Assembly: GCF_013167455.1 (NCBI RefSeq)
Contig: NZ_CP038328.1
DNA from: Escherichia coli O157:H7
GTDB taxonomy: Bacteria; Pseudomonadota; Gammaproteobacteria; Enterobacterales; Enterobacteriaceae
Length of the DNA stretch: 64,000 nucleotides
Reading direction: 5' to 3' (one strand)
Shown: positions 42,400 through 42,673 of the stretch, one piece after another
Position numbering within the stretch: the first letter of the stretch is position 1
Layout of the letters: every line of letters begins with the position of its first letter
Notes under the pieces: generated by a model
Seen by the model: the letters and a program-made list of their open reading frames with translations, nothing else
What the model was told of the DNA's origin: nothing
The model's database searches: none
Program-made: the position numbers and the translations under genes

Positions 42400-42463
42400 T
42401 TATATTTGCTATAAAGAGTGTTGTGTATATTTTGCCATTTAGAGCGAAATTTTAAGGATAGAA

Positions 42464-42482
42464 TATTAACTTAACCTTAAGA
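42464..42482 (-). promoter_or_regulatory. candidate PmrA (BasR) box upstream of arnB
   Basis: minus-strand cttaag-gttaa-gttaat resembles YTTAAK-N5-YTTAAK direct repeat in the arnB/ais intergenic region. Confidence 0.45.
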
Positions 42483-42673
42483 AACTAATATTAGACGTAA
42501 ATATTGAAATTTTTATATTTTTTCTTATTTAGGCTTTGCATTTGGCAAAATTTTGAGGCATTTTGCCAGCATCGTAGGATTTTTAATATTACACCAACTG
42601 CTAATTATCGCCAGAAATGTCGCTCAATTTCACGGTAATTGTCTGGTTGCGCTTGTCTATAGGTGGAGTTTAC

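Follow-up and report, generated by a model that had tools for sequence, protein, structure and literature searches.

A PmrA/BasR box in the divergent arnB/ais region of Escherichia coli and its predicted place in the arnBCADTEF promoter

The divergent region between arnB and ais on the E. coli chromosome carries a direct repeat that, judged by its sequence and context, is very probably the operator that places the arnBCADTEF promoter under PmrA (BasR) control. The phosphorylated PmrA dimer would bind both half-sites head-to-tail, the box would stand in for the -35 element of the arnB promoter, and sigma-70 RNA polymerase would use the hexamer TAAAAT 10 bp downstream of the box. Transcription would run leftwards into arnB from a predicted start near 42442, and the arn enzymes made in this way would add 4-amino-arabinose (Ara4N) to lipid A. 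This one box probably acts on the divergently oriented ais as well, which would have a weak candidate sigma-70 promoter of its own, TTGCAT-17-CATTTT, some 54 bp right of the box. Our own computations cover the site with its statistics, architecture and conservation; that PmrA binds such boxes and that the E. coli arnB promoter depends on pmrA is taken from the literature. The PmrA/BasR operator of E. coli arnB has already been described, and the region is an ordinary control region. Footprints or SELEX data for E. coli BasR reportedly come from Hagiwara in 2004 and Ogasawara in 2012. What is mildly new is confined to the comparative points, namely the candidate ais promoter and the retention of the box in genomes that have lost arn.

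Results

The arnB/ais locus and its gene content

We analyzed a 64-kb stretch of E. coli DNA, called the window throughout. Gene annotation was transferred from E. coli strain 2017C-4109, to which the window is identical over 31368 to 48654 and from which it differs by a single mismatch over 1..31367. The genes before pmrD are yfbU, hxpA, yfbS, yfbR, alaA, lrhA, nuo, yfbM, an elaD-like gene, rbn, elaAB and men; from pmrD on, the order is pmrD-arn-ais, nudI, yfaZ, yfaY and the rhm genes, towards glp. In strain 2017C-4109, an IS1203 insertion splits rhmT, which encodes an MFS transporter; the window carries no insertion at 48655-48665 and reads straight through.

The divergent arnB/ais intergenic region occupies 42367..42673 (307 bp) and has a GC content of 32.6%, compared with 51.2% across the window, in agreement with the AT-rich divergent region described in the initial annotation. 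An alternative arnB start, an in-frame ATG at 42384 (-), lies 18 nt upstream of 42366 and is the one used in the K-12 annotation. The positions of all features are collected in Table 1.

The initial annotation also held that pmrD lies downstream of the operon and that the whole polymyxin-resistance regulon is intact here. The first statement is correct, since pmrD is intact at the downstream end of the arn operon and convergent with arnF. The second applies to arnBCADTEF, pmrD and ais, all of which are intact, but is overstated for the regulator genes basRS and for eptA and ugd, which fall outside the window. None of them is annotated in the genome segments that match the window, and we take them to be located elsewhere on the E. 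coli map. The ugd product supplies the UDP-glucuronate precursor of Ara4N.

Table 1. Features of the arnB/ais locus in the window, followed by ais loci of genomes without arnBCAD (positions in the latter are those of the respective locus)
Feature	Position	Strand	Remarks
PmrA/BasR box	42481..42465	- (arnB strand)	CTTAAGGTTAAGTTAAT; CTTAAG-GTTAA-GTTAAT
Spacer between box and -10	42455..42464	-	10 nt, ATTCTATCCT; nearly invariant in Escherichia and Citrobacter
Predicted arnB -10 hexamer TAAAAT	42454..42449	-	10 nt downstream of box
Predicted arnB transcription start	42439..42445, ~42442	-	placed 7 +/- 3 nt past the -10
arnB 5' leader	42367..42438	-	~76 nt by predicted start; contains mini-ORF and Shine-Dalgarno GGAAGGA
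AT-rich tract, box to candidate ais promoter	42482..42535	.	upstream of arnB promoter; length varies by ~10 or 21 bp between species
Candidate ais core promoter	TTGCAT 42536..42541, 17-nt spacer, CATTTT 42559..42564	+	predicted start ~42571
arnBCADTEF operon	35016..42366	-	seven ORFs, each intact
arnB	41227..42366	-	ATG at 42366
arnC	40255..41223	-	intact ORF
arnA	38273..40255	-	intact ORF
arnD	37386..38276	-	intact ORF
arnT	35734..37386	-	intact ORF
arnE	35402..35737	-	intact ORF
arnF	35016..35402	-	intact ORF
pmrD	34756..35022	+	88 aa, intact; convergent with arnF, 7-bp overlap at arnF 3' end
ais (pmrG)	42674..43276	+	GTG start, 200 aa, LPS core heptose(II)-phosphate phosphatase, intact
nudI	43315..43740	-	annotation transfer, intact
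Intestinirhabdus alba ais locus			gene order menE-pmrD-ais; arn operon lost, box upstream of ais
Citrobacter rodentium and two other Citrobacter-like genomes, ais loci			gene order menE-ais; arn operon lost, box upstream of ais
C. tructae ais locus			arnT-like gene only; box upstream of ais
Upstream regions of the ais loci without arnBCAD	L086:1741-2000, L087:1751-2000, L089:1781-2000, L090 and L091		in L090 and L091, the stretch ahead of ais (at 2001)

The repeat has the exact published form of a PmrA box

The two half-sites of the box, CTTAAG (42481..42476) and GTTAAT (42470..42465), form a direct repeat separated by the 5-nt spacer GTTAA, which places them in an 11-bp register. Salmonella PmrA boxes verified by experiment consist of CTTAAG and XTTAAT with 5 bp between them (PMC3973317), and the box in the window is an exact match to this form. 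The initial annotation had located the repeat at 42464-42482, which is the right site with one extra flanking base at each end.

The pattern CTTAAG-N5-NTTAAT occurs once in the 64 kb, both strands counted, and shuffles lead one to expect 0.01 occurrences. Because the intergenic region is AT-rich, 20,000 Markov-1 copies of that region were simulated as well: 0.11% of them contained the exact pattern on one strand or the other, and 1.9% the relaxed form YTTAAK-N5-NTTAAK. The looser consensus YTTAAK-N5-YTTAAK with one mismatch showed no significant enrichment in the window (6 matches vs 3.2 expected), and the case therefore rests on the exact form together with its context. One site at a single mismatch from this looser consensus, TTTAAGAAGTATTTAGT at 43894-43910 (+), lies in the nudI/yfaZ gap about 109 nt upstream of yfaZ; its second half-site is without TTAA, and it is probably a chance match.

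A weight matrix was constructed from ArnB relatives in 80 Enterobacterales species genomes, taking the best box-like site upstream of each arnB; 54 distinct non-Escherichia sites served as the training set, and the whole window was scanned on both strands. The site singled out by the initial annotation (42465..42481, -) ranked first, with 20.4 bits vs 13.7 for the second. When the matrix was extended by the spacer and the -10, the box scored 29.6 bits vs 12.6 for the next match.

A fixed distance separates the box from the predicted arnB -10

Of 69 distinct arnB upstream regions from Enterobacterales, 64 have a TAnnnT hexamer exactly 10 nt past the best box; at every other offset from 0 to 30 nt, the TAnnnT count among these 69 regions never exceeded 5. 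The hexamer played no part in the choice of the box, and the fixed box-to-(-10) geometry is therefore an independent footprint. Sequences at orthologous -10 positions include TAGCAT, TAATCT and TATCCT, and TAGGGT in Salmonella. Both the 10-nt spacing and the orientation are thus as expected for a promoter that depends on PmrA and has the box in place of its -35 element.

Published work is consistent with this arrangement: at pbgP, ugd and pmrCAB the pmra-box and the -35 overlap, the Klebsiella pneumoniae box lies at about -37..-21 from the mapped start (PMC10570014), and the PmrA footprint at K. pneumoniae pbgP ends at -22 (PMC2565834). Applied to E. coli, the K. pneumoniae numbering (box end at -21) would set the -10 two bases upstream of TAAAAT; the native 10-nt spacing of the Klebsiella loci suggests that this two-base offset is a difference of numbering or scaffold. 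The PmrA/BasR-type direct repeat that the initial annotation had proposed on the arnB strand is thus upheld, with half-sites, 5-bp spacer, orientation and -10 distance all matching the mapped Salmonella and Klebsiella PmrA promoters. As far as the sequence tells, its spacing and orientation are compatible with PmrA sites, and the arnB start is predicted downstream of the motif.

A generic promoter scan detected neither of the two proposed promoters (arnB, ais), as expected for activator-dependent promoters without a -35. Rfam gave no match at E <= 1 over 42200..42900, no terminator-like sites turned up, and the Shigella TSS supplements contain no arnB or ais entry.

The leader downstream of the predicted arnB start contains a mini-ORF at 42438..42409 (-) that encodes MAKYTQHSL followed by a stop, with a conserved ATG about 11 nt past the predicted arnB -10. 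Its counterparts, each ending in a stop, read MAKYT in E. albertii, MGKYI in Escherichia sp. E1V33, MK in Citrobacter and MR in Salmonella. A start-stop or leader element is one possible reading, coincidence another. In Citrobacter amalonaticus (L007:2175-2500), an insertion of about 200 bp separates the arnB leader from the arnB start codon; the box there lies 327 nt from the arnB ATG, compared with the usual ~115-125 nt, and its distance to ais is unchanged.

The box is nearly invariant in E. coli

When E. coli, Escherichia sp. E1V33, E. albertii and two Citrobacter species are aligned, no block of the intergenic region is conserved better than TTTCTTAAGGTTAAnTTAAnATTCnAnCnTTA. Over 42368..42674 (307 bp), the window has 100% identity to strain 2017C-4109, and 5415 of 5426 complete E. 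coli genomes carry this segment at >=95% identity; a 61-bp core is found in 5414 E. coli genomes, and the 33-bp unit of box, spacer and hexamer is identical in at least 5233 of the 5426. K-12 MG1655 (NC_000913.3) carries the identical box at 2365813..2365829 and the identical 33-bp unit at 2365813..2365845.

This conservation bears directly on the possibility that the TTAA-rich motif has no regulatory role and matches the box by chance, the intergenic region being AT-rich. A chance match would suit a region of only 32.6% GC in a window where loose versions of the pattern are not enriched, but the exact pattern is rare (0.01 expected per window, present in 0.1% of AT-matched regions) and the box is the top weight-matrix hit in the window. 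Its position and architecture are conserved across Enterobacterales and almost invariant in E. coli, which effectively refutes a chance origin and leaves it a negligible probability.

The reading of the repeat as the PmrA operator of arnB also agrees with reporter work: in MG1655, a P_arnB-gfp fusion showed Fe3+ or mild-acid induction that was pmrA-dependent, and direct PhoP activation of E. coli arnB was stated to be absent (bioRxiv 10.1101/2020.05.05.080051). PhoP boxes, which the initial annotation had raised together with PmrA boxes, were not found: the consensus (T/G)GTTTA-N5-(T/G)GTTTA has no match at <=2 mismatches within 42367..42673, in agreement with PMC2565834, and none within 2 mismatches upstream of pmrD.

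A candidate ais promoter lies at an apparently phased distance from the box

The motif TTGCnT-17-CATTTT is common to all 12 ais loci examined, with an otherwise variable spacer sequence, and we take it for a candidate core promoter of ais, its -10 (CATTTT) being weak. The gap between the box and the -35 of this candidate is 54 bp in five of the loci and 44 bp in another five; the remaining two have 33 and 41 bp. These differences mostly amount to about one or two helical turns and therefore support a functional link between the box and the ais promoter. This link would work either by activation from far upstream, at about -98/-88/-77, or by coupling to the divergent arnB promoter. In E. coli, pmrG (ais) has been treated as a PmrA-activated gene and used as a reporter (PMC3140997), and ais is co-regulated with arn, basSR, yjdB and ugd (PMC4145685). 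On balance, we lean towards the box also serving ais, and a shared arnB/ais control region, as the initial annotation had termed it, is plausible.

The centre of the box would lie at about -98 relative to the predicted ais start in E. coli and at -88 or -77 in other species. A position of about -98 is unusually far for direct activation and is no standard activator position. By the weight matrix, the intergenic region holds one strong PmrA box only; no second box was found on the ais side, where the best candidate reached 11 bits at 42582..42598 (+). This segment, TTTAATATTACACCAAC, falls in the predicted ais leader and is the fifth-best matrix hit; it was set aside, having a poor second half-site and occurring in Escherichia only. 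On the + strand the box reads ATTAAC-N5-CTTAAG (10 of 12), TTAA being palindromic. Its use as a reverse -35 replacement for ais was rejected, as a TAnnnT 10 nt past the box on that side is absent from all 12 species. The inverted repeat GGCAAAAT/ATTTTGCC (42544..42567) was likewise rejected as a separate element: within the candidate ais promoter it occupies spacer and -10, and neither Salmonella nor Citrobacter preserves it as a repeat.

The box might instead serve arnB alone, with ais answering PmrA indirectly or via another element and the intergenic region simply held in common. The direct repeat is directional and has a -10 on the arnB side only, some 98 bp separate it from the predicted ais start, and no second box faces ais (best 11 bits, Escherichia only), all of which accord with a role confined to arnB. 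We nevertheless consider such a role rather unlikely, given that five ais loci without arnBCAD still carry the box, that the distance from box to ais promoter shifts between species in steps of whole helical turns (~10 or 21 bp), and that ais/pmrG serves as a PmrA-activated reporter gene in E. coli.

The box persists in genomes with ais but without arn

The ais loci without arnBCAD number five, four of them without any arn gene and one with an arnT-like gene only, and the box is retained in all five. The hexamers 10 nt from the box in these loci are TAGAAT, TAATAT, TATATT, TAATAT and TACTCT, and the spacers have diverged.

This pattern touches on a further explanation, in which ais is activated by divergent arnB transcription: polymerase moving leftwards would leave negatively supercoiled DNA in its wake, and this would open the weak ais promoter, with no PmrA contact. 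It would account for the retention, despite diverged spacers, of the box and of TAnnnT exactly 10 nt away in the former arnB direction, and it suits the weak ais -10 (CATTTT). The arn-less genomes, however, represent few independent lineages, probably three deletion events; their hexamer could be a recent remnant; and the apparent helical phasing of the box against the ais promoter favours protein contact or DNA geometry over supercoiling alone. We regard this explanation as unlikely.

A more elaborate proposal, speculative and in our judgement unlikely, would make the single box a bidirectional element. It would replace the -35 for arnB and act on ais from ~-98/-88/-77, on a conserved helical face or by supercoiling; the leftward promoter of arn-less genomes would be kept under selection, either as needed for ais or as making an orphan PmrA-dependent transcript. 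Transcripts of this kind would run antisense to menE or pmrD at the 3' end of the gene.

Discussion

As the cis element for Ara4N modification of lipid A, the box would mediate induction by Fe3+, mild acid and low Mg2+ (the last via PmrD). Ara4N induction brings polymyxin/colistin tolerance in E. coli, which is clinically relevant and textbook knowledge for this locus. The present analysis adds a quantitative confirmation of the canonical architecture (box, 10 nt, -10), its near-invariance within E. coli, and the finding of no direct PhoP control.

One of the closest parallels is pbgP (pmrH/arnB) of Salmonella enterica, where, as in E. coli, the box lies in the divergent arnB-pmrG(ais) region and is a hexamer direct repeat with a 5-bp spacer. 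The comparison with this promoter that the initial annotation had suggested yields the same layout of box, 10 nt and TAnnnT: the Salmonella locus L084 carries CTTAATGTTAATTTAAT followed by ATTCATCCAG (10 nt) and TAGGGT, in the same geometry as E. coli. The two differ in the first half-site (CTTAAG in E. coli vs CTTAAT in Salmonella L084), in the -10 (TAAAAT vs TAGGGT) and in how far the candidate ais promoter is from the box (54 bp vs 44 bp). Salmonella pbgP has no PhoP box (PMC2565834), as in the E. coli window.

The pmra-box of Klebsiella pneumoniae pbgP, known from crystal structures (4S04/4S05) and a cryo-EM activation complex, belongs to the same operator class and overlaps the -35. In Klebsiella/Raoultella loci with the published box CTTAATATTATCCTAAG, TAnnnT likewise lies 10 nt past the box. 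The Klebsiella box, CTTAAT-ATTAT-CCTAAG, is about 170 nt from the start codon, compared with 115 nt in E. coli, and Klebsiella has an additional PhoP box and a second, PhoP-dependent promoter (PMC2565834), neither of which was found in the E. coli window.

Promoters with a PhoB pho box, such as pstS, resemble the PmrA box in that an OmpR/PhoB-family direct repeat replaces the -35. The pho box is located 10 bp upstream of the -10. These promoters differ from the PmrA box in half-site sequence and in regulator, and PmrA has been compared with PhoB in promoter recognition (PMC4660055).
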